This document shows positions 1-11,358 of a stretch of 11,358 nucleotides of DNA, in pieces. Position 1 is the stretch's first letter, and the number at the start of each line of letters is the position of its first letter. Source of the DNA: Pseudomonadota bacterium (lineage in GTDB: Bacteria > Myxococcota > JACRCW01 > JAFGSX01); NCBI GenBank assembly GCA_043821645.1, contig JBDRCO010000050.1:1-11358 (forward strand), in the 5' to 3' direction. A program made the position numbers and the translations under genes. Below the pieces are notes generated by a model. It did not search any database. It saw only the letters and a program-made list of their open reading frames with translations, and was not told the origin of the DNA.

Positions 1-149
1 TCGTCCGTCGAGCCGGTGTCGACGACGATGATCTCGTAGCCCGAAGTCGGCCACTCCAGCAGATCGAAGCTGCGCAAGGTGCGGCCAAGCAGCACGCACC
101 GATTGCGTGTTGGAATGACGACGCTCACCTTGCAACGCGTCGCCGTCAT
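1..149 (-). CDS. Glycosyltransferase family 2 (GT-A), N-terminal fragment; runs off the left edge of the window
   Basis: Not in the ORF track. Hand translation from ATG at 149 gives MTATRCKVSVVIPTRNRCVLLGRTLRSFDLLEWPTSGYEIIVVDTGSTD, the typical GT2 'SVVIPTxNR...EIIVVDxGSTD' N-terminus. ATGA overlap with the upstream stop (146-148). Confidence 0.9.
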   Translation of the reverse strand, partial: MTATRCKVSVVIPTRNRCVLLGRTLRSFDLLEWPTSGYEIIVVDTGSTD

Positions 150-1966
150 GAAGGATTCCGCCGCGAACCGGATCCCACGGCACCCTCCTGGGCGGTGGCT
201 GGGTCGCTCTCAACTTCGAGACGGGCCTGCGCTTGTGTCGAGGTCTCCTCGACCTCATCACCTGCCCTGTGCATTACCAGGCTGGTGCCTGCGATGTGGT
301 ACAGTCTGTGTGTTGCCGAAAGTTCATCGATTGCCTTCATGACACCTGGCGCATATGGCGCGTAGTCATGCCACATCACCACACCACCAGGACAGACCAT
401 GGACAAGGCAGAGCGGCTGTCCACACTCACCTGGCGATAGTGGTGGCAGGCGTCAACCAGGATGAGGTTCATCTGGTGTCGGTAAGGTGTGAAGTCGAAG
501 GTCAGCGAGTCACCGAGCAGCTGGACGATGCGTTCGGCCTCGGGCGTGCCCACGAATCGTCTCCCGACCTGCTGCGGGTACACGTCGAGCTCCGCGACTT
601 GCGGTCGGCTTCCCTCGCCAGCCGCCTGAACCGGGAGGTCGAGCGTGAACACGCGCTGAGCACCGTTTGCGGCGAGCTGGCGAGTGGTCAGGCCCTCGTA
701 GGTTCCGAACTCGAACGTGATTTTCGGCTTCAAGCATCGCACGATTTGCATGAATACGGCGAGCTCGTGAATCATCAGGCCCCCAACGGTTGGCACAAAT
801 CCAAGTAGCTGGATCGGACCCGGACGGAACCCAGGCAACACACTCGCTAATTTGTCCTGACTCAGAACGAGCGGTCGCCGCGGGCGAGACGCGATCGGAG
901 AGCAGGAATGGTCGTCCCGGTCAGCTTCTTGACCACGGATGAGCCCCACATGCGGTAGTCGCGAGTGGAGGTGGCGAACGGTCGCGCCAAAGGCGCGCCG
1001 AAGTGTCATGTCGAGAGCGCTCTTTCCAACCTGTTGGGCAGCTTGCATCATGACGATGTGACGGATCCTCGCGCGATCTGGAGCGCGCTCCAGGCCCAGC
1101 CGCTCGGCACATTCTGCGGCGAGAGATGGTTCGATGGTGATTCGTTTTGCATCGAGTTCGAAGTTGAGTCGCGACTGCCAATGTGGCGTTTGTTTATCGC
1201 CAAGGGTGAGTAAATCATAGGTGCCAGCTGGCCGGTTGGAGTCGCCCCTGTTGACGAACAGTGGGCTCGAACCGTAGATGAAGAACGGGATGCCCAACTC
1301 GATGGAGTAAAAGGCGCAAGATCCAACGACATTGCTCGTGCAGTACCGATGCGAAGACAAGATGTGGTAAAAAGAATCCACGAAATGTGGGTCGAGATGA
1401 TGACCCGCAGTGACGACGGGGATTCCGCGTTCGAGAAAAGGCTTCGCAGCGCCGCGTTTGATATCCAGCCAGTAGAGGCCGATGCTCACGGGATGGAACT
1501 CGAGAGGCAAGTCGAGCAATGCCTCGGCATAGTCCTCCCAGCGAGTATCAACCTCGATCAGCTCAGTGGAGTGGATGGGGAAGGCGATCGTCCCAGTTCG
1601 TCCACGCTTCGCAGCGTACCCGGCTTTCCGGCGGTAGTGGACAAAAGGCGAACCTGTGACGACGGAATCTCTTCCAGTCTCGTCAAGAATAGCACGACGT
1701 CGGCCTTCATTCACGACGAGTAGAGGAAGGGAGGTTCGGCGATCCCCTTCATAGACCTCATCTACTACAGGTACGCCATGATCAACGTGAACGAGCAGCG
1801 GGAACCACGAAGGTAGCGACAGCCAGGACCGGAAGCACCGGCCAATGGAGTACCATTCATGGTCCAGCCTTGAAGGTGGTAACTGCTCGTATTTACGAAT
1901 GCGAGCAAGCGCGGCAGTGAGGTCTGGTGCGCCTCCCGGTATAATTCTGAATCGTGCTGAGTTCAT
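146..1966 (-). CDS. Two-domain protein (606 aa): unassigned N-terminal domain (putative nonulosonate glycosyltransferase) fused to a C-terminal class I SAM-dependent methyltransferase (Methyltransf_24-like)
   Basis: Start moved from 2086 to ATG 1966 (MNSARF), which has an ATGA overlap with the pseI stop and GAGGA just upstream. C-terminal motifs: FEFGTYEGLTT (SAM motif I), TLDLP, ILVDACHHY, PGGVVMWHDY. The N-terminal function (FPIHST, TSNVVGSCAFYSIELGIPFF) is inferred only. Confidence 0.7.
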   Translation of the reverse strand: MNSARFRIIPGGAPDLTAALARIRKYEQLPPSRLDHEWYSIGRCFRSWLSLPSWFPLLVHVDHGVPVVDEVYEGDRRTSLPLLVVNEGRRRAILDETGRDSVVTGSPFVHYRRKAGYAAKRGRTGTIAFPIHSTELIEVDTRWEDYAEALLDLPLEFHPVSIGLYWLDIKRGAAKPFLERGIPVVTAGHHLDPHFVDSFYHILSSHRYCTSNVVGSCAFYSIELGIPFFIYGSSPLFVNRGDSNRPAGTYDLLTLGDKQTPHWQSRLNFELDAKRITIEPSLAAECAERLGLERAPDRARIRHIVMMQAAQQVGKSALDMTLRRAFGATVRHLHSRLPHVGLIRGQEADRDDHSCSPIASRPRRPLVLSQDKLASVLPGFRPGPIQLLGFVPTVGGLMIHELAVFMQIVRCLKPKITFEFGTYEGLTTRQLAANGAQRVFTLDLPVQAAGEGSRPQVAELDVYPQQVGRRFVGTPEAERIVQLLGDSLTFDFTPYRHQMNLILVDACHHYRQVSVDSRSALSMVCPGGVVMWHDYAPYAPGVMKAIDELSATHRLYHIAGTSLVMHRAGDEVEETSTQAQARLEVESDPATAQEGAVGSGSRRNPS

Positions 1967-3024
1967 GAATCCTCGTCGAGATCGCTCCAGGTCAATGGGG
2001 AGCCCCTCAATATTGTCCTGATCGCCCGGGCCTGAAGGACGCGTTCCAGGTAGCGAGGTGGAAGCCCATTCCCTGGTCGGATGCATCTTGTGTTTTGGGT
2101 GGTGAAGCGCTCGCCAGCTTGTACATCCCGTGTACAGAAAAGGGATCGTCTGAATACAGTACTCGGCCTCTCGGCCTCACTCTGTTCGTAACAGATCTCT
2201 CCCAGGGATCGTTCGGCGATGTGCGCCGCTGTAACCATTTCAGCAAACTCATGGGGTTCAAGCGAAAAGGCGCTATCCGGACCCGGATCGCCGCGCGAGA
2301 GAGTCAGGTGCTTTTCGATCACCTTGGCGCCCACTGCCACCGCAGCTACGGCCACCGTGGTTCCAAGTGTATGATCTGACAGGCCTGCCACCACTCCAAA
2401 CCGCGCAGCAAGGTCTACAATGGTCCGCAAGTTGGCTGCCGCTGGAGACGCTGGGTAGGCACTTGTGCACTTGAGCAAGCACAGACCAGGATCGGCATCG
2501 CCCCACACCTTCCGGATGGACGAGACAGCAAGTTCTATTTCCTCCAACGTCCCCATTCCTGTCGACAGGATGATGGGTTTGCGGATTGCCGCCACATACT
2601 CGATCAACGGGATATCCACCAGCTCGAAGCTGGCGATCTTGTAGACTGGCACGTCGAGCTTTTCGAGAAAGTCGACGGCAGTGCTGTCGAACGGTGTGCT
2701 GAAGAAGTCCAGCCCGAGTTCGTGGGCAAGGTCGCGCAGCGGCGCGTGCCATTCCCAGGGCGTGTAGGCCTCTTTGTAGAGGTCATACAGAGTTCGGCCG
2801 TCCCACAGGCCGCCCTGGATCTTGAACTCGTCACGATCGCAGTCGATGGTCATGGTGTCCGCGGTATAGGTCTGCAGCTTGATGGCGTCGGCACCGGCCT
2901 GCGCCGCCGCGCGCACGAGCTCCATCGCGCGCTCGAGGGAACCGTTGTGGTTGGCCGAGAGCTCGGCGATCACGTAGACGTTGTTTTTATCGCGGATCCT
3001 GTCCATGACTGAGCCTGGGTTCAT
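1963..3024 (-). CDS. pseI: Pseudaminic acid synthase (NeuB family with C-terminal SAF/antifreeze-like domain)
   Basis: IAELSANHNG, IKLQTYTADTMTID, LYDLYKEAYTPWEWH, KIASFE, LKCTSAYPA, GLSDHT, IEKHLT and C-terminal RRSL...IRPGNGL. AGGA lies 6 nt before the ATG. Clustered with pseB, pseC and pseG. Confidence 0.93.
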   Translation of the reverse strand: MNPGSVMDRIRDKNNVYVIAELSANHNGSLERAMELVRAAAQAGADAIKLQTYTADTMTIDCDRDEFKIQGGLWDGRTLYDLYKEAYTPWEWHAPLRDLAHELGLDFFSTPFDSTAVDFLEKLDVPVYKIASFELVDIPLIEYVAAIRKPIILSTGMGTLEEIELAVSSIRKVWGDADPGLCLLKCTSAYPASPAAANLRTIVDLAARFGVVAGLSDHTLGTTVAVAAVAVGAKVIEKHLTLSRGDPGPDSAFSLEPHEFAEMVTAAHIAERSLGEICYEQSEAERPSTVFRRSLFCTRDVQAGERFTTQNTRCIRPGNGLPPRYLERVLQARAIRTILRGSPLTWSDLDEDS

Positions 3025-3032
3025 GACCTATC

Positions 3033-3716
3033 CTAGCGCAGGGTCCGGATGACCTCGAAGGCCTCGGCAGCCTCGACGCCGACGACGCTGCCCCAGCGCC
3101 TGGCAACAGCGGTCAGAGCCTCGGGGGAGCGTGGGTGGGGGAAAGCGCGCGATTCCCTGCTATAGATGGCCATCGCGTCGAGCTTTTTGTCCAGGGTCGT
3201 GTGAACGTCATAGAAGACTGCCGGTCTGAAAATGGGCTCGATGCGCTGAAATGCCCACTCCGTCGAAGAGGGGATCTCGAAGCAGAGTAGCTCCTTCACA
3301 CTGGCCCCGGGATCGGGTCGACAGGCTGTCAGGGTCGCCTGGAACAGCACACGGTGGTCCACGTTGAGGTCACCCGGGTGATGGGTGAAGACAAGTGAGG
3401 GAGAGAACTCATCCAGCAAGGACTCCACGCGCTTTACCACGTCCAGCAGGTCCAGGCTGTCGAACCTATTGTCGGGCAGGCCAAAGCAAAGAACCGAGGT
3501 CGCCCCGAGAATTCGGCCGGCCTCTACGGCCTGTATGCTGAGCGTCCTCGTCTCTTCTTCAACTGCCTGCTCACGTTTCGTATGTCGCGATGTCGCACCC
3601 TCACCGAAGATGCACACCTGGACCTGGTGGCCTTCTTCGGAGAGACGGCGAATCGTTGCACCGCAGCCAAGAACTTCATCGTCGGGGTGAGCTGCCACGA
3701 CCAGGACCTTCATCAC
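3033..3716 (-). CDS. PIG-L/LmbE family metal-dependent de-N-acetylase
   Basis: VVAAHPDDEVLGCG (HPDD metal motif), THHPGDLNVDH (DH motif), FPHPRS and AEAF C-terminus. The start is GTG 3716 or the adjacent ATG 3713 (AGGAGG-C-GTG-ATG), overlapping the upstream stop. Confidence 0.92.
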   Translation of the reverse strand: MMKVLVVAAHPDDEVLGCGATIRRLSEEGHQVQVCIFGEGATSRHTKREQAVEEETRTLSIQAVEAGRILGATSVLCFGLPDNRFDSLDLLDVVKRVESLLDEFSPSLVFTHHPGDLNVDHRVLFQATLTACRPDPGASVKELLCFEIPSSTEWAFQRIEPIFRPAVFYDVHTTLDKKLDAMAIYSRESRAFPHPRSPEALTAVARRWGSVVGVEAAEAFEVIRTLR

Positions 3717-4429
3717 GCCTCCTGCTTCTGTGTGATGGATACCTGCGCCGTCAGCCTTCCTGCCTCGAGCCGGGCGTCGCGGAACTCGAACCGCAGGCTG
3801 CCCTGCTCGACAAACGCATGCGGGTACCCATCGGCATCGAGCATGCGGATGATGTCATGGAGCTGATCGAGCGACTCGTCGCCGGTGATGAGGCTCTGGC
3901 TGGGTTTGCGCCGCCTGAAAACCACCACCTCGCCCTGCTGTGGCGTCGGCTCAGGGTTCTGTTCGACGATTTGGCGAATCATGGCTGCGGAGAGCACTCC
4001 CGCCCTGACATAGATATCCTGCGCGCGGCCTTGTAATGACAAGGGTTCCTTCAAGTACACCGGCCCGGCGTCGAAGTCCTCGACCATGCGCAGAGCCGTC
4101 AACTGTGTGTCATGGTGGCCGCGCTGGATAAGGTTTTGTAGGGGACTGCCACCGCGGCCATAGGGGACGTCGGTCATGTGAAAGCAGACGCACTCGAAGC
4201 GATCAAGGATCTCCGACGGCACCCTGGCCGACCAGTGAAGAAAGAACACGTATGTGGGAGCTAGCTCAAGGAGCCTCGACAGGGTCAGCTCGGATTCGTT
4301 GCCAATAAAAGTCCAGCGCCCGGGCAAAGTTGCCAGGTGAGCGTCGAACGTTGCGCGATTCCACGGGCGACTTCCCGCCACGACGTAGGCCAGGCGAGCA
4401 CCCTCGGTAATCTTGAAGGACTGCTTCAT
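3713..4429 (-). CDS. Formyltransferase 2 (Fmt-like, N10-formyl-THF dependent; FHMTDxPxGRGGSPLQNL type), putative sugar N-formyltransferase
   Basis: FFLHWS, CVCFHMTDVPYGRGGSPLQNLI, DFDAGPVY, DIIRMLDADGYPHAF. Start corrected to ATG 4429 (ATGA overlap with the upstream stop at 4426-4428); 238 aa. Confidence 0.85.
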   Translation of the reverse strand: MKQSFKITEGARLAYVVAGSRPWNRATFDAHLATLPGRWTFIGNESELTLSRLLELAPTYVFFLHWSARVPSEILDRFECVCFHMTDVPYGRGGSPLQNLIQRGHHDTQLTALRMVEDFDAGPVYLKEPLSLQGRAQDIYVRAGVLSAAMIRQIVEQNPEPTPQQGEVVVFRRRKPSQSLITGDESLDQLHDIIRMLDADGYPHAFVEQGSLRFEFRDARLEAGRLTAQVSITQKQEA

Positions 4430-5235
4430 ATTTTTCTCTTGCCGCCAGGCACGGGATCGGTGCTGGTCGTCGATGGTAGTCGCTCGTCTGGCTCCAGCTT
4501 GATGCTCACCCACACGCGCCTACCGCGGTCCTCGAAGAAAGCACCGCGGTAGCCGGCAAAGGTCCGCGCCCGTATTCGATCGATCAGGTCGCCCGCACGC
4601 ACCAGGGCGTCCAGATCGATCCGGTCCACGGCATCGACGTCCTTCCGCTGATGGGTCGTTCCCTGAGAGCGATCCTGAGGTCTGCGGACAGCGCGCTCCT
4701 CGACAATAGACTCGAAGTGCAACTTGAACAGCGAGAGCGCATCCTGCTCCAGCCGGCGGTACAGGGTCTCGCCCGTGTCCCACGAGAGAACCTCGGTCTT
4801 GTGCTGGGCGATGATGTCTCCGGTGTCGAGGGTTTGATCCATGTAGTGCAGAGTCACGCCTGCAGGACTGCCGTCGACGATGCTCCAGACATTGGGGTAA
4901 TTCCCACGATTGAAGGGCAGATAGGCCGGATGCAAATTGATGACGCCGAGCCTGAAGCTGTTCAGAATCTTTGGGCGGATCAGGTAGTCGAATAGCACCG
5001 AGATCCCCAAGTCGGCCTTGAGCGATATCAGCCGCTCACGCACCTCAGGCTGGCGCAGCGTCGAGCCATCGAACACGCGTTCCTCTGGGCAGCCGCTGAG
5101 CTCGATGATCTCGGAGAGGTACTTTTGGCGGGAGGGCGGGTGGACCACCAGGGCTTCGATTGCCTGACCCTGCTCCCGAATCCAGCGCAACACTTCGCGC
5201 CCGAGCCAGTTGTTGGCAAAGAAGACGATCTTCAT
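4426..5235 (-). CDS. Formyltransferase 1 (Fmt/PurN fold), putative UDP-4-amino-sugar N-formyltransferase
   Basis: INLHPAYLPFNRGNYPNVWSI (catalytic N-x-H and HxSLLP-like motif), GVTLHYMDQTLDTGDII (catalytic Asp), IRARTFAGYRGAFF. Start corrected to ATG 5235 (MKIVFFANN; ATGA overlap with the pseG stop); 269 aa. Confidence 0.87.
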   Translation of the reverse strand: MKIVFFANNWLGREVLRWIREQGQAIEALVVHPPSRQKYLSEIIELSGCPEERVFDGSTLRQPEVRERLISLKADLGISVLFDYLIRPKILNSFRLGVINLHPAYLPFNRGNYPNVWSIVDGSPAGVTLHYMDQTLDTGDIIAQHKTEVLSWDTGETLYRRLEQDALSLFKLHFESIVEERAVRRPQDRSQGTTHQRKDVDAVDRIDLDALVRAGDLIDRIRARTFAGYRGAFFEDRGRRVWVSIKLEPDERLPSTTSTDPVPGGKRKI

Positions 5236-6290
5236 GTTGCGCATACCCCTGCGAGCTCCATCTCGGTGATCACGCGCTGACATCCGTGACCATCGACCAG
5301 CTTTCGGGCCCGCTCGCCCATTTCCTGCCGCCGGTCGCGATCCTCAGTCAGCTCTCGTAGTTGCGGGAGAAGACTGCGTGCGCACAACTCACTATGCCAG
5401 CCAAGATCCCTGGCGGCTCCCGCCGCCCCGGCGCTGGACGCAATGGGACGCTGGTTGTCGGCGACAGAGACCAGCAATGATGGGATTCCGAAGTGCATCA
5501 GCTCCCAGGTGGTGCTGCCGGCGGCCGAGATGGACAGGTCGGCTAGGTCGAGCGTCGCAGACATGTCCTGCACGTTCTCCAGGACACTGGCCCGCAGCAG
5601 GGAAGCCAGTCGCTCGAGTTCGAACAAGTGGGCTGTGCTTTCGCGGCTGCCCAGGACGACTGTGAGCTCCAGGTCTGGTGGCTCTCGCACCAGAGCGCCA
5701 AGTACCCGTGCGCACAGGCCCTGCGGATCGCTGCCGCCGGCGATCACCAGAAGGTTCCGGCCACGACTTCGTTGCTCCGGTGTCCTGGGTCTAGCCTGAC
5801 GCAGTGAGCGGCGCAGAAGCACGTGACGTGGTCCCAACAGGAGCGCCGATCGTTTCCTGAACTGGGGGTAGAGTTGCTCGCGGGCATGTAGGTTCTGATT
5901 GAGAACCAGGTCCGCGTGAATCGGCTCTCCTGTACCTTGGTCGTCGATAAACAGGACACGCGCCCTGGCCTGGGCGAGTTGGAGCCGATACGCGGCGTTC
6001 AGGCGATAGCCATCGAGCACGATCCAGCGAGCATTGTGCGCCTCGCTCTGTGCGACGGTCTGTTGTGCATCGTCATCGCTGCCAACCTCGGCCTTCACCC
6101 TCACAAGGTGGATGTCTTCGTCGGCCAGTAAATGCTCGAGTTGTTCACTGAGTTCGGCAGCCAGCCACGTGATACGGAGCCCCGAATCCACCAGGGCCTG
6201 GGCCAGGGCCAGACAGCGCATGAAGTGGCCGGAGCCGATCGCAGGGCTTGCGTCGACTCTGAACAGCACGTCGGCAGGCGCGTGGTTCAC
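5232..6290 (-). CDS. pseG: UDP-2,4-diacylamido-2,4,6-trideoxy-beta-L-altropyranose hydrolase (GT-B fold)
   Basis: LFRVDASPAIGSGHFMRCLALA (catalytic His), VLDGY, FIDD, VLNQN, GGSD, ISAAGSTTWEL, VADNQ, VDGHG. Start corrected to GTG 6290 (GAGG 5 nt upstream; GTGA overlap); 352 aa, with no fused GNAT domain. Confidence 0.9.
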   Translation of the reverse strand: MNHAPADVLFRVDASPAIGSGHFMRCLALAQALVDSGLRITWLAAELSEQLEHLLADEDIHLVRVKAEVGSDDDAQQTVAQSEAHNARWIVLDGYRLNAAYRLQLAQARARVLFIDDQGTGEPIHADLVLNQNLHAREQLYPQFRKRSALLLGPRHVLLRRSLRQARPRTPEQRSRGRNLLVIAGGSDPQGLCARVLGALVREPPDLELTVVLGSRESTAHLFELERLASLLRASVLENVQDMSATLDLADLSISAAGSTTWELMHFGIPSLLVSVADNQRPIASSAGAAGAARDLGWHSELCARSLLPQLRELTEDRDRRQEMGERARKLVDGHGCQRVITEMELAGVCAT

Positions 6291-7012
6291 AGATGCCTCT
6301 GCCTGACCAAGCGATTGAGTTCGCGCACATTGGGATGCTGGGTCAGGTACCTGCGTACCTCGCGCCAGGGCCAGCGACCCTGGGGATCCGCCTCGTACAC
6401 AGCCCTTACCAGCGCCAGGTCTTCTGGCGTGTCCACCGTCCATCGCTCGGCTGAGTGGTCTTCGTCGCCATACAGACCGCGCACTGTGAATTTATCGGGA
6501 TGCTGCCACAGGTAGGTCGTCACGTGCTCTCGGTACACGGGCAGCTGACCCTCGCGCCAGGCCCGATGCAACGCGTCGATGCGAAACGCCTCGCAATCGA
6601 GTCCGCGGGGGAAGCTGCGGGGCTCCACGATGTTGCTGGCGTAGTCTGTCTCGCTTGCGCTGAGCAGCAGGTTCACGACCTGATCGACGAGTTCGGGATC
6701 GATCAACGGGCAGTCCGAGGTGATGCGCACCACGAGGTCGGCTCTATGCTCCTGCGCGGCGCGCCAGTAACGATCCAGCACGTCGGTCTCGTCTCCCCGG
6801 AAGCAGGCCCAACCACGGTCGCTGCAGAGCTTCGCGATGGCATCGTCCGCTGCCAACTTGGAGGTGGCCACCACCACCTTGTCGACGCGGGTGGCCCGCA
6901 GGGTGCGCGACACCACGCGCGCCAGCATGGGCTGGCCCGCGAGGTCCATGAGCACCTTGCCCGGCAGCCGCGTCGATCCCATGCGGGCCTGGATGATTGC
7001 CACCGTCGTCAT
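6287..7012 (-). CDS. spsF: SpsF-type cytidylyltransferase (CMP-nonulosonate synthetase, presumed functional equivalent of PseF)
   Basis: MTTVAIIQARMGSTRLPGKVL, RGDETDVLDRY, VRITSDCPLIDP, FPRGLDCE, REHVT, RWTVDTPEDL. Start corrected to ATG 7012; 241 aa. Confidence 0.88.
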   Translation of the reverse strand: MTTVAIIQARMGSTRLPGKVLMDLAGQPMLARVVSRTLRATRVDKVVVATSKLAADDAIAKLCSDRGWACFRGDETDVLDRYWRAAQEHRADLVVRITSDCPLIDPELVDQVVNLLLSASETDYASNIVEPRSFPRGLDCEAFRIDALHRAWREGQLPVYREHVTTYLWQHPDKFTVRGLYGDEDHSAERWTVDTPEDLALVRAVYEADPQGRWPWREVRRYLTQHPNVRELNRLVRQRHL

Positions 7013-7037: not shown

Positions 7038-7661
7038 TCAGTAGGCCCGTTTCTCGAGCATGAACCAGGTGCTGTCATCCAGCGCGAATTCGGGATCCCG
7101 GTGGTAGACAAAGCCGTAGTCGACCAGCCGAAGGTCACCAAAGCGGTCGAGGAGTTCGCCTGCGAAGTCGCGCTTGAACAGGCGCTCAGCGTGCCCTCGG
7201 TACGGCACGCTGGTGGGGGTCGGGTTGTAGTACTCGCAGACCATGAGGTAGCGGCGGCTCGCCCGATACATGACGTCGTAGGCGGCGGGAAGCGCGTCCG
7301 GGTTGATGTGGATCAGGACGCCCTTGGTGAAGACCAGGTCCCACTGGAGCGGGCTTGCGAACTCGAGCAGCGACCCATTGTGCACCTCGACGCGCTCTTG
7401 GCGACGGAGCTCTGCGGCTGCCGAGGAGTTGATCTCCACCGCGGTCAGTCGTGCATGTGGCAGGAGCTGCGCGAGCGCAGCCAGATTGAGGCCGATGTTG
7501 GCGCCTAGTTCTAGCACGGAGGACACCTTGTCGGTCGCGTGCAGCGCACGGGCAAACAGCGACAGGTTGCTTGCCACGAGCGAGCTGCCCCGGTTCCTCT
7601 CGATGTAGTCCTGGCCGAACTCGCCAGCCCAGAAGCGCTCCTGTTCGGTCGCGAATGGCAT
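7038..7661 (-). CDS. Pseudaminic acid biosynthesis-associated methyltransferase (class I SAM)
   Basis: TEQERFWAGEFGQDYIERN, VLELGANIGLNL, VEIN, DLVFTKGVLIHINP, EYYNPTP, YRGH..RLFKRDFAGE, DYGFVYHRD, WFMLEK match the Pse-cluster methylase family. AAGGA Shine-Dalgarno upstream. Confidence 0.9.
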   Translation of the reverse strand: MPFATEQERFWAGEFGQDYIERNRGSSLVASNLSLFARALHATDKVSSVLELGANIGLNLAALAQLLPHARLTAVEINSSAAAELRRQERVEVHNGSLLEFASPLQWDLVFTKGVLIHINPDALPAAYDVMYRASRRYLMVCEYYNPTPTSVPYRGHAERLFKRDFAGELLDRFGDLRLVDYGFVYHRDPEFALDDSTWFMLEKRAY

Positions 7662-7678: not shown

Positions 7679-8932
7679 TCAGGATCGGCCCGGGACCGGG
7701 CGAACGGCGGGGGGCCTGCCCTTGACCAAGGCCGCGATAACGAGATCGACGTCGGCGTCCGTCATTGCCGGGAACATGGGCAGGCTCAGGCAGCTTGCGT
7801 AGAATAGATCGGCACCGGGCAGGCCGCCTTCGGGGAGGATCGCGTCGCGCTGTTCGGGCTGCCAGTGCACGGGGATGTAGTGGACCTGGGCCAGGATGCC
7901 AGCCGCATGCAGGCTCAGGAAGAGATCCTTGCGCCTCTGCGCCAGGCCCAGCAGGCTCTCTCCTTTCGTGGGCAGCAGGCGGACCACGTAGAGATGATAG
8001 CTGCTGCGCCGGTCCGGAATTTGCGCGAGCGGCTCCAGCCAGCTCTTGAATGATTCCTGTGACAGAGCGCTGTCGTAGGCTGCTGCCAGCGCGCGCCGTC
8101 GCTGCACGAAGCGCTCGAGCTTGGCCAGCTGCGACAGGCCCAGGCTGCAGTTGAGGTCGGGCAGCCGATAGTTGAAGCCCAGCCTGGCTTGCTCATAGTA
8201 CCAGGGGCCCACATAAGCCTCATCGACGCTGCGCGCAAACTCCCCTGTGCGCTTGTGGATGCCATGGCTGCGCAGGTCTTGCACGCGGCCATGCACGTCG
8301 GCGTGCGGCGAGAGCAAGGCCCCGCCCTCGCCCGTGGTGATGTGCTTGACCGGGTGAAAGCTAAGGATGGTGGCGTCGGCCAGGCTGTGCCCTGCGATGC
8401 GGCACGCCTGTCCATCGACGTCGAGGGTTGCCCCCAGCGAGTGTGCCGCGTCCTGCAGCAGCCTCATGTCGTTCGCCCGCGCCAGCGCGTTCAGCGCTGG
8501 CAGGTCCGCGGGTTGTCCAGCAAAGTCCACAGGGATCAGCAGGCGAGGTCGCAGGCCCTGCGCGCGGAGCTGCGGTACCAGGGCCTCCACGCTCTGTGGC
8601 GCGATCAGTCCTGTTGCCGGATCCACGTCGGCCAGGGCCACGCGGCCTCCCGCGTAACGGATCGCATTGGCGCTGGCAACGAAGGTGACGGGACTGGTGA
8701 TGCCGACGTCACCCGGGCCCAGACCCAGTGCCAGGGTCGCCAGGTGCAGGGCCGCGGTGCCGTTGCTGACCACGGCGGCATGGGACGCGCCCGTCGCTTC
8801 GCACAGGGCCGCCTCGAACTGCTCCACCCGCGGCCCCTGGGTCAGATTGTCGTCGCGCAGACACGCGAGCACGGCTTTCACGTCCTCGTCGTCGATCCAC
8901 TGACGACCGTATGGCAGCGCTCTCTGATTCAT
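7679..8932 (-). CDS. pseC: UDP-4-amino-4,6-dideoxy-N-acetyl-beta-L-altrosamine transaminase (DegT/DnrJ/EryC1/StrS, PLP dependent)
   Basis: LPYGRQWID, LTQGP, SNGTAALHLA, TFVASAN, QDAAHSLGA, SFHPVKHITTGEGG (PLP Lys), WYYEQARLGFNYR, QVHYIPVH. Directly follows pseB with an ATGA overlap. Confidence 0.93.
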   Translation of the reverse strand: MNQRALPYGRQWIDDEDVKAVLACLRDDNLTQGPRVEQFEAALCEATGASHAAVVSNGTAALHLATLALGLGPGDVGITSPVTFVASANAIRYAGGRVALADVDPATGLIAPQSVEALVPQLRAQGLRPRLLIPVDFAGQPADLPALNALARANDMRLLQDAAHSLGATLDVDGQACRIAGHSLADATILSFHPVKHITTGEGGALLSPHADVHGRVQDLRSHGIHKRTGEFARSVDEAYVGPWYYEQARLGFNYRLPDLNCSLGLSQLAKLERFVQRRRALAAAYDSALSQESFKSWLEPLAQIPDRRSSYHLYVVRLLPTKGESLLGLAQRRKDLFLSLHAAGILAQVHYIPVHWQPEQRDAILPEGGLPGADLFYASCLSLPMFPAMTDADVDLVIAALVKGRPPAVRPVPGRS

Positions 8933-9960
8933 CTCGAAGCGTCCAGCGTCCAGGCGAATTTTGGATCGACGTGCAAGCGAATCAACTCGCGAAGCTCATC
9001 GACCGTGAGCCACTGGTCGTTGTGCAGGCTGTCATAGCTGAAGCCAGGCACGCACGGGTGACCGCCATTCTCGCGAGCGTACCTCCCCGTGTCCCAGAGT
9101 TGTGCGCTTGGGCAGATCACGTAACGCTGTGGGAACTCCAGACTGTTCTGGGCATCGGTCTCGGTGATCATCATTTCATGTAATTTCTCGCCTGGGCGTA
9201 CACCGATGATCTCTGTGCGGCAGCCCGGTGCCACGGCCTCTGCCACATCAGTGATTCGAAAGCTGGGGATCTTTGGCACAAATATCTCGCCTCCCCACAT
9301 GTATTCGAGTGCAAACAGAACTTGGTCCACACCCTGATCCAGGGTGATGTTGAATCGAGTCATATCCGGGCTTGTGATGGGAATCACCCCCTCGCTTCGC
9401 TTGCTCATAAACAGTGGGATGACACTTCCTCGGCTGCCCAAAACATTGCCATAACGCACCACGGAGAGTTTAAGATTGCGTTTGCCTTTGAAGTGGTTGG
9501 CAGCTACGAAAAGCTTGTCTGAACAGAGCTTTGTGGCGCCATACAGGTTGATGGGGGCTGCCGCCTTGTCAGTGCTCAGTGCGACGACGCGCTGTACTCC
9601 TTGGTCCAGGCATGCGGTGACTAAATTTTGGGCACCCAGGATGTTGGTTTTGATGAATTCGAACGGGTTGTATTCAGCGGCTGGCACCTGCTTCAACGCG
9701 GCTGCATGTACGACGATGTCGATGTCCTCGAGCGCCCTGCGCAGGCGCGGCTCATCGCGCACGTCTCCGAGAAAGAACCGCGTCTTCTGGCGGTGTTCGG
9801 GCGATAAAGTTTGGGCCATCTCGTACTGCTTGAGCTCGTCTCGACTGAACACGACCAGGCGCCGGGGTTTATGTCGCCGCAGCACCACATCGACAAATTT
9901 CTTCCCGAAGGAGCCTGTGCCTCCGGTGACAAGCACCCCTTTGTCGTCCAGGAAGCTCAC
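8929..9960 (-). CDS. pseB: UDP-N-acetylglucosamine 4,6-dehydratase (inverting)
   Basis: VTGGTGSFG, FSRDELKQ, HAAALKQVPAAEYNPFE, ALSTDKA, NLYGATK, RYGNVLGSRGSV, MTRF, GVRPGEKLHE. GTG start with GGAGG upstream, overlapping the wzt stop. Confidence 0.96.
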   Translation of the reverse strand: MSFLDDKGVLVTGGTGSFGKKFVDVVLRRHKPRRLVVFSRDELKQYEMAQTLSPEHRQKTRFFLGDVRDEPRLRRALEDIDIVVHAAALKQVPAAEYNPFEFIKTNILGAQNLVTACLDQGVQRVVALSTDKAAAPINLYGATKLCSDKLFVAANHFKGKRNLKLSVVRYGNVLGSRGSVIPLFMSKRSEGVIPITSPDMTRFNITLDQGVDQVLFALEYMWGGEIFVPKIPSFRITDVAEAVAPGCRTEIIGVRPGEKLHEMMITETDAQNSLEFPQRYVICPSAQLWDTGRYARENGGHPCVPGFSYDSLHNDQWLTVDELRELIRLHVDPKFAWTLDASR

Positions 9961-11261
9961 GCCTCCTCCCTTCGGTTCCAGCCAGGGACATGAATGGTCC
10001 CGTCCGGATGCACCCAGTGATACGGCAGAAGGACCGGAGCACTGTGCTCGATGAGTCCATCCGCCTCAATCCCATGCATGTCGAGATCCGCCGCACCTCC
10101 CGCAATTCGGAATGTGCCAATTTGGGACGCTGTCGGAATGAGGAAATGACGGCCGCTCTGATCCCGTGCCCCGAGGCTAATGTAATAAGTCTGAGGTAGA
10201 AGCATCGGCTTTTCGAACACGCAGCGCAGGCACCCGTCGCCGCTTATCTCGAGAGGGCGAAGACCGTCGAGGAGCATGTTGGCCCCACAGAAGTTCCCGG
10301 TCTCGCTGGCCAGGCCGATCCAGAAATGAGGCAAGGCGATGGGCTTGCCGGCGCGATAGTGCACTTCGATCGTGATGTCCTGCTTGACCTGCAGTGTTCT
10401 TGTTTCCCTGCCACTAGGATCGAGCACGCACACTCGACCTATCACGAAATCGAATTCGGCACTGGATGCGACGGCCCCAGACGAGTTCGCGGAAGACTCC
10501 AAGTATAGCCTGACAAGCTCAGTACTGATTCCTTGCTGGCGCAGCAGACCGCCTTCGATCCAGAAGGAACGCTGGCAGATTCGGGTCACAGCGTTGAGGT
10601 TGTGACTGACAAACATGACCGTCCGCCCCCCCCTCGCCACATCCCCCATTTTCCCCAGACATTTCTTCTGAAACGCCACATCCCCCACCGCCAGCACCTC
10701 GTCGACGAACAGGATGTCGGTCTCCAGGTGCGCTGCCACGGCGAAGGCCAGCCGCACGTACATGCCGCTACTGTAGCGCTTGACCGGGGTGTCGATGAAC
10801 TTGTCGATCTCGGCGAAGGCCACGATCTCATCGAATTTCTTGCGGATCTCGGCGCGATGCATGCCCAGGATGGCGCCGTTGAGGAAGATGTTCTCGCGGC
10901 CGGTGAGCTCGGGGTGAAAGCCGGTGCCGACCTCGAGAAGGGAGCCGACGCGGCCGTGGATGCGCGCCTCGCCCACGGTGGGCTCCGTGATGCGGCTGAG
11001 GATCTTGAGCAGGGTGCTCTTGCCCGCGCCGTTGCGGCCGATGACGCCCACCACCTCGCCGGGCATGACGTCGAAGCTCACGTCCTTGAGGGCCCAGATC
11101 TCCTCGTCGGCGGGCACCGGCTTGCCGAGCTGCTGCAGGCGGCGCAGGGGTGCCAGCGCCATCTCGGTGACCACCTCGGTCAGGCGCTTGTAGGGCGCCT
11201 GCTTCGCGCCGATGCGAAAGCGCTTGCCGAGTCCCCGGACCTGTATGGCGGGCTGGGTCAC
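9957..11261 (-). CDS. wzt: O-antigen/polysaccharide ABC exporter ATP-binding subunit with C-terminal Wzt_C-type (carbohydrate-binding) domain
   Basis: Walker A GRNGAGKST, LLEVGTGFHPELTGRENI, signature YSSGM, Walker B/D-loop ILFVDEVLAVGD, H-loop VSH, and a roughly 170-aa beta-rich C-terminal extension. Start corrected to GTG 11261 (GAGGAG upstream, 7 nt after the wzm stop); 434 aa. Confidence 0.93.
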   Translation of the reverse strand: MTQPAIQVRGLGKRFRIGAKQAPYKRLTEVVTEMALAPLRRLQQLGKPVPADEEIWALKDVSFDVMPGEVVGVIGRNGAGKSTLLKILSRITEPTVGEARIHGRVGSLLEVGTGFHPELTGRENIFLNGAILGMHRAEIRKKFDEIVAFAEIDKFIDTPVKRYSSGMYVRLAFAVAAHLETDILFVDEVLAVGDVAFQKKCLGKMGDVARGGRTVMFVSHNLNAVTRICQRSFWIEGGLLRQQGISTELVRLYLESSANSSGAVASSAEFDFVIGRVCVLDPSGRETRTLQVKQDITIEVHYRAGKPIALPHFWIGLASETGNFCGANMLLDGLRPLEISGDGCLRCVFEKPMLLPQTYYISLGARDQSGRHFLIPTASQIGTFRIAGGAADLDMHGIEADGLIEHSAPVLLPYHWVHPDGTIHVPGWNRREEA

Positions 11262-11268
11262 GCTCTCC

Positions 11269-11358
11269 TCACACGCGGTCCGCGAAGGTGCGCTCGGTGC
11301 GCCTGAAATAGTACGCGCCACCGACGAGCAACAGCAAGGTCACGCTGGTCGACACCAG
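11269..11358 (-). CDS. wzm: ABC-2 type polysaccharide exporter permease, C-terminal fragment
   Basis: Not in the ORF track. Hand translation gives LVSTSVTLLLLVGGAYYFRRTERTFADRV*, a hydrophobic helix followed by the typical Wzm 'FRRxERxFAD' tail, immediately upstream of wzt. Confidence 0.88.
   Translation of the reverse strand: MVSTSVTLLLLVGGAYYFRRTERTFADRV

Follow-up and report, generated by a model that had tools for sequence, protein, structure and literature searches.

The 11,358-bp window analyzed here, which is the whole of contig C50 (JBDRCO010000050.1) in a 7.07-Mb assembly of 140 contigs, is filled by eleven genes, all on the minus strand. They constitute a predicted single operon for a CMP-activated pseudaminic-acid-type sugar, with a Wzt exporter ATPase at its head. 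Between the genes of the UDP-sugar hydrolase PseG and the pseudaminic acid synthase PseI lie three genes, encoding a sugar N-formyltransferase (FT1), a formyltransferase-fold protein (FT2) and a PIG-L/LmbE-family de-N-acetylase (hereafter PIG-L). As judged from sequence and gene order, FT1 is an alternative occupant of the slot of the acetyltransferase PseH, and FT2 together with PIG-L is a separate module, independent of the slot occupant. The best and most economical reading, which we regard as evenly balanced between right and wrong, is a pathway to a 7-N-formyl pseudaminic acid (Pse) whose N5 would be deacetylated and re-formylated (Pse5Fo7Fo). If true, the window operon would make 5,7-di-N-formyl-pseudaminic acid.

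The initial annotation had described FT1, FT2 and PIG-L as three translationally coupled genes between pseG and pseI, and the overlaps read from the sequence confirm this. ATGA overlaps join PseG to FT1 (5235-5232) and FT1 to FT2 (4429-4426), FT2 and PIG-L overlap in TGATG (3715-3711), and a gap of 8 nt separates PIG-L from PseI; position 5235 belongs to the ATG of FT1, and position 3033 is the final base of the PIG-L stop codon. It had also taken the three genes as one cassette occupying the pseH position. That view did not survive comparison with related loci, where FT2 and PIG-L stand beside PseI independently of FT1 and mostly alongside PseH. Of the three genes, FT1 alone occupies the PseH slot.

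FT1 and the PseH slot

PseC gives a free 4-amine, the future Pse N7, which is acylated before PseG and PseI act, and the N5 acetyl comes from UDP-GlcNAc. FT1 (4426..5235, minus strand) matches Formyl_trans_N (PF00551) with 81 bits and N_formyltrans_C with 55.9 bits. Its INLH and LDTGD motifs are invariant in 8 orthologs (Asn100, His102 and Asp137), and we take these Asn-x-His...Asp residues to be the catalytic residues of formyltransferases; domain and residues together mark FT1 as a sugar N-formyltransferase. Its nearest relatives in the Protein Data Bank (PDB) are Mycobacterium tuberculosis Rv3404c (E value of 2.1e-29), 4nv1 (named "Formyltransferase"; 8.9e-28) and PseJ (2.1e-24), together with VioF, and these include enzymes that formylate nucleotide-linked 4-amino-4,6-dideoxyhexoses (Rv3404c) as well as PseJ. 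By analogy with these relatives, FT1 is predicted to transfer a formyl group from N10-formyl-tetrahydrofolate to an NDP-4-amino sugar, and the amine concerned is predicted from the sequence to be the 4-amine (future N7) of the UDP-sugar.

PseJ (PDB 6CI2/6CI4) is cited, in the part of the source available to us, as completing the pathway to Pse5Ac7Fo (PMC11040635). The PseJ route resembles that of the window in that a formyltransferase takes the place of PseH at the 4-amine, and FT1 aligns with PseJ over about 130 residues. It differs in that FT1 is nearer to Rv3404c and carries the PF18216 C-terminal dimerisation domain, which is extra relative to PseJ. PseJ ranks fourth among the PDB matches of FT1 and covers residues 70-201 only, so FT1 was not identified as a PseJ ortholog, and a PseJ-like role does not imply orthology. 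Moreover, the PseJ route leaves N5 acetylated, whereas the window adds a deacetylase and a second formyltransferase.

No acetyltransferase for the same step was found. The initial annotation had seen no GNAT or hexapeptide acetyltransferase in the window, and none of the 66 open reading frames (ORFs) of at least 60 aa matched either type; the 12 main ORFs were scanned against Pfam, and no Pfam family was assigned to the remaining 54 at E ≤ 0.001. Genome-wide, the PseH model TIGR03585 gave nothing above its cut-off (best 53.7 bits versus 93.1). This model is a weak detector of cluster-type GNATs, since a genuine PseG-fused copy in the Methanoregula genome G001 reached only 38.5 bits, and local profiles were therefore built from cluster-linked GNATs. 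In the window's own genome, the local GNAT hidden Markov model gave at best 51 bits, compared with 150 to 235 for most cluster-linked copies, and the profile from alignment A2 gave at best 46 bits, compared with 96.6 for a positive control outside the seed. The best PseH candidate of this genome resembles RimL, and the genome holds one pse cluster only. A pseH elsewhere, which the initial annotation had named as a possible source of the missing step, was thus not detected as a cluster-type gene by TIGR03585 or the cluster-derived profiles.

For comparison, we took the best 80 of at least 537 loci that encode an FT2 relative in a genome scan, with genes called by tblastn with the window proteins. 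These loci come from Acidobacteriota, Verrucomicrobiota, Planctomycetota, Cyanobacteriota, Chloroflexota, Myxococcota, Thermodesulfobacteriota, Gemmatimonadota, Pseudomonadota, Armatimonadota, Bacteroidota and a Methanoregula archaeon. The usual gene upstream of FT2 encodes either a PseG of about 500 aa with a C-terminal GNAT or a separate GNAT; the C-terminal GNAT, present in most related loci, is missing from the window PseG. By the local profiles, the PseH slot holds a GNAT in 57 loci (53 strong, 3 weak or partial and 1 with an extra short formyltransferase), an FT1-type protein in 8, a short FT2 paralog in 7 and none of these in 8. FT1 and GNAT are mutually exclusive across the 80 loci, and this exclusion, the canonical residues and the PDB relatives bear out the placement of FT1 at the PseH step in the initial annotation.

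The slot labels are scattered over a quick, weakly supported tree of FT2, on which FT1 requires 7 changes for 9 rows. In one metagenome-assembled genome (isolate JOPF018), FT2-PIGL-PseI occurs in two clusters whose FT2s are sisters; the slot holds a GNAT in L018 and FT1 in L025. The window order PseG-FT1-FT2-PIGL-PseI is repeated in L020, L025, L033, L062 and L083, which span three phyla, and partly in L051. With this five-gene order in at least five other loci and with the partial chemical precedent described below, the novelty that the initial annotation had attached to the window was overrated: the window adds a further example of a pseudaminic acid pathway variant that is common. What makes it valuable is that it amounts to a natural experiment, in which the PseH-to-FT1 swap leaves N5 as the site on which the module probably acts.

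FT2 and PIG-L beside PseI

FT2 (3713..4429, minus strand) belongs to the 1ZGH/PF21553 family. In Pfam, Formyl_trans_C_2 (PF21553) alone passes (74.4 bits versus a cut-off of 27), and the NCBIfam matches of ArnA/Fmt type are weak and far under their cut-offs. The PDB entry 1ZGH of Clostridium thermocellum matches residues 14-235 with an E value of 7.3e-56, and the AlphaFold model of FT2 (pLDDT of 88.5) superposes on it with TM scores of 0.88/0.93. The next fold neighbors of the model are ArnA, Fmt, WbkC, HypX and the hydrolase domain of 10-formyl-tetrahydrofolate dehydrogenase, so that the structural neighbors are all formyl-tetrahydrofolate enzymes. Like FT2, 1ZGH has the motif HMTD(L/V)P(F/Y)GRGGSPLQNLI and no Asn before it. 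Its deposited name, "methionyl-tRNA formyltransferase", is an automatic label, and our literature search, of which most subscription journals were outside the scope, found the code only in a paper that by its title appeared unrelated.

Profile-profile alignment with hhalign places Cys82, His84 and Asp120 of FT2 on Asn100, His102 and Asp137 of FT1. His84, Asp120, G91, G93, G94, P96, L97, Q98, N99 and L100 are invariant in 24 FT2 sequences, R92, S95 and I101 are at least 90% conserved, and the folate loop GRGGSPLQNLI is thereby kept in FT2. A mean column identity of 67% across phyla indicates strong constraint. The family is large: among 8,000 candidates scored, more than 7,600 relatives were found at E ≤ 1e-5, and the family, with more than 7,600 clusters at 90% identity, extends over more than ten phyla. 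The named relatives are mostly called "methionyl-tRNA formyltransferase" in their sources. Among the 401 genomes around Methanoregula G001, 9 matched and only 1 held a strong FT2 homolog, the query's own source.

PIG-L (3033..3713, minus strand; PF02585, 92.2 bits versus a cut-off of 28.2) carries HPDDE and GDxNxDH, which we take to be the metal-binding and catalytic motifs, and H9, P10, D11, D12, H112, D115, D119 and H120 in them are invariant in 24 orthologs. It shares its Pfam family and metal-binding motifs with BshB, MshB and diacetylchitobiose deacetylase. In contrast to BshB and MshB, it represents a distinct subfamily tied to PseI, and it stays below the cut-offs for bacillithiol and mycothiol deacetylases (BshB1, 59.7 versus 182.5 bits; BshB2, 50.9 versus 195.25; MshB, 23.8 versus 224.35). 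PIG-L matches were found in 30 of 401 Planctomycetota genomes.

One locus outside the comparison above (L125, G538:C1:3106500-3126000) encodes at about 9327-10469 a GNAT-PIG-L fusion that adjoins a NeuB-family synthase, with no formyltransferase nearby. Its other neighbors are an AMP-binding enzyme, a radical-SAM protein, a DUF4910 protein, an Antibiotic_NAT protein and two cytidylyltransferases, and the whole resembles a further set of tailoring genes built around this deacetylase. Compared with the cluster published for Candidatus Kuenenia stuttgartiensis (discussed below), the locus has no formyltransferase and does not match the description.

The co-occurrence of FT2 and PIG-L, raised by the initial annotation as a matter for survey, is the rule among the 80 FT2-anchored loci. 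FT2 is immediately followed by PIG-L in 70 of these loci and has it within 2.5 kb in 77, and PseI is found within 2.5 kb of FT2 in 73. FT2-PIGL-PseI is the order in 61 loci, FT2-PseI-PIGL in 7 and PseI-FT2-PIGL in 6. As for the three loci with no PIG-L match, L047 ends just past FT2, L070 has a PIG-L fragment and L074 has an unassignable ORF. The fragment in L070 (935-1564) lies directly after FT2, and its first 89 PIG-L residues continue into an SCP2_2 domain, a join that reflects either a chimeric assembly or a real rearrangement. A plasmid of Synechococcus sp. NIES-970 is a cultured, publicly annotated example; other cultured carriers encountered are Brevifollis gellanilyticus NBRC 108608, Stutzerimonas stutzeri 28a22 and Moorena bouillonii PNG. 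FT2 and PIG-L mostly co-occur with PseH in related loci.

The partners of the module are also joined in natural fusions. Among 62 longer PIG-L homologs, the added domain is a GNAT in 35, a formyltransferase domain without PF21553 in 9, an FT2 domain in 4 and NeuB in 3, with ATP-grasp, methyltransferase and HAD domains in 1 each; one of the four PIG-L/FT2 fusions is a GNAT+FT2+PIG-L protein, and a FolD domain occurs in none of the 62. Of the three PIG-L-formyltransferase fusions inspected, P0124 contains Asn-x-His, which is absent from P0130 and P0178. The 44 longer FT2 homologs include at least 28 with a GNAT (5 of them also with PseG), 9 with a second formyltransferase, 2 with PIG-L and 1 with NeuB; in the tandem fusions P0186 and P0196, the added half is an Asn-less short paralog. 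Fusions of a deacetylase with an acetyltransferase, and of an acetyltransferase with a second acyltransferase, make sense if the partners act on different nitrogens of one sugar.

The short FT2 paralog just mentioned fills the PseH slot as a separate gene in L084 (6322-6981), L038 (6331-6987) and L081 (6187-6855) and is fused to PseG in L009, L023 and L039; its carriers include Stutzerimonas stutzeri 28a22 and Moorena bouillonii. A PseJ-like identity was rejected for it, because its best PDB match is 1ZGH (E value of 2.7e-10) and the catalytic Asn is missing here too. No other acyltransferase is present in the 7 short-paralog loci. In several GNAT-less clusters, ATP-grasp ligases (L006, L011 and L042) or a WbqC-like protein (L016) stand beside FT2 and PIG-L, and ATP-grasp is fused to PIG-L in P0145 and to FT2 in P0204; these neighbors and fusions hint at other N-acyl groups.

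Proposed pathway and alternatives

In the proposed pathway, PseB and PseC would make UDP-4-amino-4,6-dideoxy-AltNAc, whose 4-amine FT1, dependent on N10-formyl-tetrahydrofolate, would formylate in place of PseH. PseG would then strip the UDP, PseI would add three carbons from phosphoenolpyruvate, and the SpsF-like cytidylyltransferase would activate the product. Because FT1 stands in for PseH, N5 carries the sole acetyl available to PIG-L. This zinc-type de-N-acetylase is predicted from its sequence to take off that acetyl, inherited from UDP-GlcNAc, and FT2 would most likely re-formylate the freed N5 amine. The product would be Pse5Fo7Fo, possibly methylated further by the TIGR03587 methylase of the operon. 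It is we who infer the substrates, the order of the steps, the nitrogen served by each enzyme and the catalysis by FT2 in this scheme. The count of acyltransferases fits the count of acylated amines: GNAT, FT2 and PIG-L would give a 7-acetyl, 5-formyl sugar; FT1, FT2 and PIG-L, a di-formyl sugar; and one formyltransferase with one deacetylase, one formyl group and one free amine, the last being the state described for the Kuenenia sugars discussed below. The calculated masses are 334.1376 Da for Pse5Ac7Ac, 320.122 for the formyl plus acetyl form, 306.1063 for the di-formyl form and 278.1114 for the form with one formyl group and one free amine. More tentatively, and with somewhat less than even confidence, we consider that FT2 and PIG-L may be a module that edits nonulosonic acids in general at N5, where the acetyl would give way to a formyl group (or to a free amine). 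If this is true, most genome-predicted environmental "pseudaminic acids" are not Pse5Ac7Ac.

Several points weigh against the di-formyl pathway. Two residues before its His, FT2 has no catalytic Asn, and its family has Cys or Val there (Val in 1ZGH); to our knowledge, this Asn is present in all characterised formyltransferases, and given its loss FT2 may be inactive or do other chemistry. FT2 is the sole acyltransferase candidate in L041, L045 and L076, which have no GNAT, FT1 or short formyltransferase, and neither a GNAT of the cluster type nor an ortholog of FT1 was found anywhere in the genome of L041 (G002); FT2 may therefore be able to acylate the 4-amine, which would blur the assignment of N5 and N7. 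Among 13 Planctomycetota PIG-L loci (at least 40% identity), FT2 stands beside PIG-L in 4 and another formyltransferase in 2, and neither lies within 1.5 kb in 7. In Kuenenia, as far as the accessible text of that report goes, one amine of the sugar stays free, so deacetylation need not be followed by re-acylation. FT2 and PIG-L may act at the stage of the UDP-sugar, the free hexose, Pse or CMP-Pse. Our literature search found no assay of the FT2 family or of the PIG-L subfamily of the window. Finally, the assembly is 94.7% complete, so a distant PseH may have been missed.

The missing Asn speaks for a pathway in which FT1 formylates N7, PIG-L deacetylates N5 and FT2 is dead or serves as a structural or regulatory partner, leaving a zwitterionic Pse5N7Fo. 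The CMP-nonulosonates with one formyl group and one free amine in the Kuenenia preprint, as far as its accessible text goes, and the existence of PIG-L orthologs with no formyltransferase neighbor point the same way. We nevertheless regard it as unlikely, as the strong constraint on FT2, with its 67% column identity and its invariant His84, Asp120 and folate-loop residues, argues against a dead protein, and the PIG-L fusion P0124 has a canonical Asn-x-His formyltransferase domain, which makes formyl transfer the expected partner activity. Moreover, 7 loci that have no other acyltransferase carry the Asn-less paralog, either in the slot or joined to PseG, which suggests activity in members without this residue. 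Formyl transfer by an enzyme lacking the canonical Asn would, if true, be of enzymological interest. The FT2-only clusters L041, L045 and L076 speak for a different arrangement, in which the roles are swapped or shared, with FT2 formylating N7 and FT1 formylating N5 after PIG-L, or both acting on N7. This is distinctly unlikely in our view, since FT1 occupies the exact place of PseH and excludes it, its solved relatives use NDP-4-amino-4,6-dideoxyhexoses, and it is FT2, not FT1, that is coupled and fused to PIG-L and is present whatever fills the slot.

A slightly less likely reading still gives FT2 and PIG-L a different substrate, such as another amino sugar in the exported glycan, or has them transfer a group other than formyl. 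It would account for the ATP-grasp, AMP-binding or WbqC genes that adjoin the pair in other loci, and no assayed member of either family in the literature found contradicts it. However, 73 of 80 loci tie the pair to PseI, natural fusions link it to PseI, PseG and PseH, and all fold neighbors of FT2 are formyl-tetrahydrofolate enzymes. That the operon serves an ordinary Pse5Ac7Ac pathway, with PseH encoded elsewhere and the three genes irrelevant, seems hardly credible to us: the incomplete assembly (about 95%) and the contig ends flanking the operon on both sides leave some room for it, but no cluster-type GNAT was found in the 7.07 Mb, and the three genes are translationally coupled within the operon.

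Known systems and the rest of the operon

Flagella, capsules, O-antigens and S-layers bear pseudaminic and legionaminic acids, whose N-acyl groups determine charge, antigenicity and recognition by phages. FT2 with PIG-L is one of the most frequent unassigned additions to pse clusters, and the two go under the wrong names of methionyl-tRNA formyltransferase and LmbE-like protein in public annotation. The enzymes of N-modification are described as "largely unknown" in the available part of a 2024 Chem Sci paper. The canonical route to CMP-Pse5Ac7Ac, through PseB, PseC, PseH, PseG, PseI and PseF, is given for Campylobacter jejuni and Helicobacter pylori in the accessible text of PMC11040635 and the SugarBase preprint. 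Like this route, the window starts from UDP-GlcNAc and has PseB, PseC-type, PseG and PseI genes in one operon; unlike it, the window lacks PseH, has a cytidylyltransferase that is SpsF-like and adds two formyltransferase-fold genes, PIG-L, a methylase and a Wzt ATPase.

The closest chemical precedent comes from Ca. Kuenenia stuttgartiensis, for which the available part of a preprint (bioRxiv 10.64898/2026.04.20.719630) reports CMP-nonulosonates with one formylated and one free amine, together with a leg-like cluster that contains a deacetylase and a formyltransferase. As in the window, these two genes lie between the aminotransferase and synthase genes of a nonulosonate cluster, and the formyl and free-amine groups on the CMP-sugars imply that editing precedes glycan assembly. 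In contrast to the window, the Kuenenia cluster is of leg type, with one formyltransferase and a free amine in the product; its enzymes are assigned there from gene context, and the likeness is one to the published description only. Halorubrum sp. PV6 and the virus HRPV-1 have 5-N-formyl-legionaminic acid, according to the accessible text of PMC6137143, so N5-formyl nonulosonates do exist in nature. A predicted formyltransferase, HrrPV6_1050, lies inside the Halorubrum biosynthesis cluster as FT2 does in the window; this sugar is an archaeal legionaminic acid, unlike that of the window, and that text mentions no deacetylase. In the literature covered by our search, no paper uses short names of the type Pse5Fo or Leg5Fo.

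The rest of the operon, which lies on the minus strand throughout, supports the assignment to a pseudaminic acid cluster, as PseB, PseG and PseI pass their equivalog cut-offs and PseC falls just below, all in one locus. PseB (8929..9960), the inverting UDP-GlcNAc 4,6-dehydratase, reaches 499 bits against a TIGR03589 cut-off of 407.75. The PseC-type aminotransferase (7679..8932), which would make the 4-amine destined to become N7, scores 297.6 bits with DegT_DnrJ_EryC1 and 415.7 bits with TIGR03588, marginally short of the cut-off of 423.5. PseG (5232..6290; TIGR03590, 211 bits versus 153.55) likely starts at GTG 6290, in a GTGA overlap with the upstream stop codon, and PseI (1963..3024) reaches 471.3 bits against a TIGR03586 cut-off of 340.25.

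A pseudaminic acid biosynthesis-associated methylase (7038..7661; TIGR03587, 289.8 bits versus 112.05) is followed by a CTP_transf_3 (SpsF-like) CMP-sugar cytidylyltransferase (6287..7012; PF02348, 114.1 bits), which stands in place of PseF and reaches only 32 bits with the PseF model TIGR03584 (cut-off of 205.7); its start was refined from the sequence to the in-frame ATG at 7012. The last gene (146..1966) encodes a 606-aa protein with a C-terminal Methyltransf_24 domain (PF13578, 38.5 bits). It starts at ATG 1966, where an ATGA overlap couples it to the PseI stop codon. It has no NCBIfam match and no PDB match at E ≤ 1, tblastn gives no homolog of it in the 80 related loci, and it may be a glycan-terminating or transfer enzyme. 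The first gene (9957..11321) encodes a Wzt-type ABC exporter ATPase with a Wzt_C glycan-binding domain (ABC_tran, 75.1 bits; Wzt_C, 45.6 bits) and has a 4-nt overlap with the PseB start. Its place at the head of the operon suggests that the Pse-type sugar enters an ABC-transporter-exported glycan. The order Wzt-PseB-PseC is also found in L024, L050 and L055.

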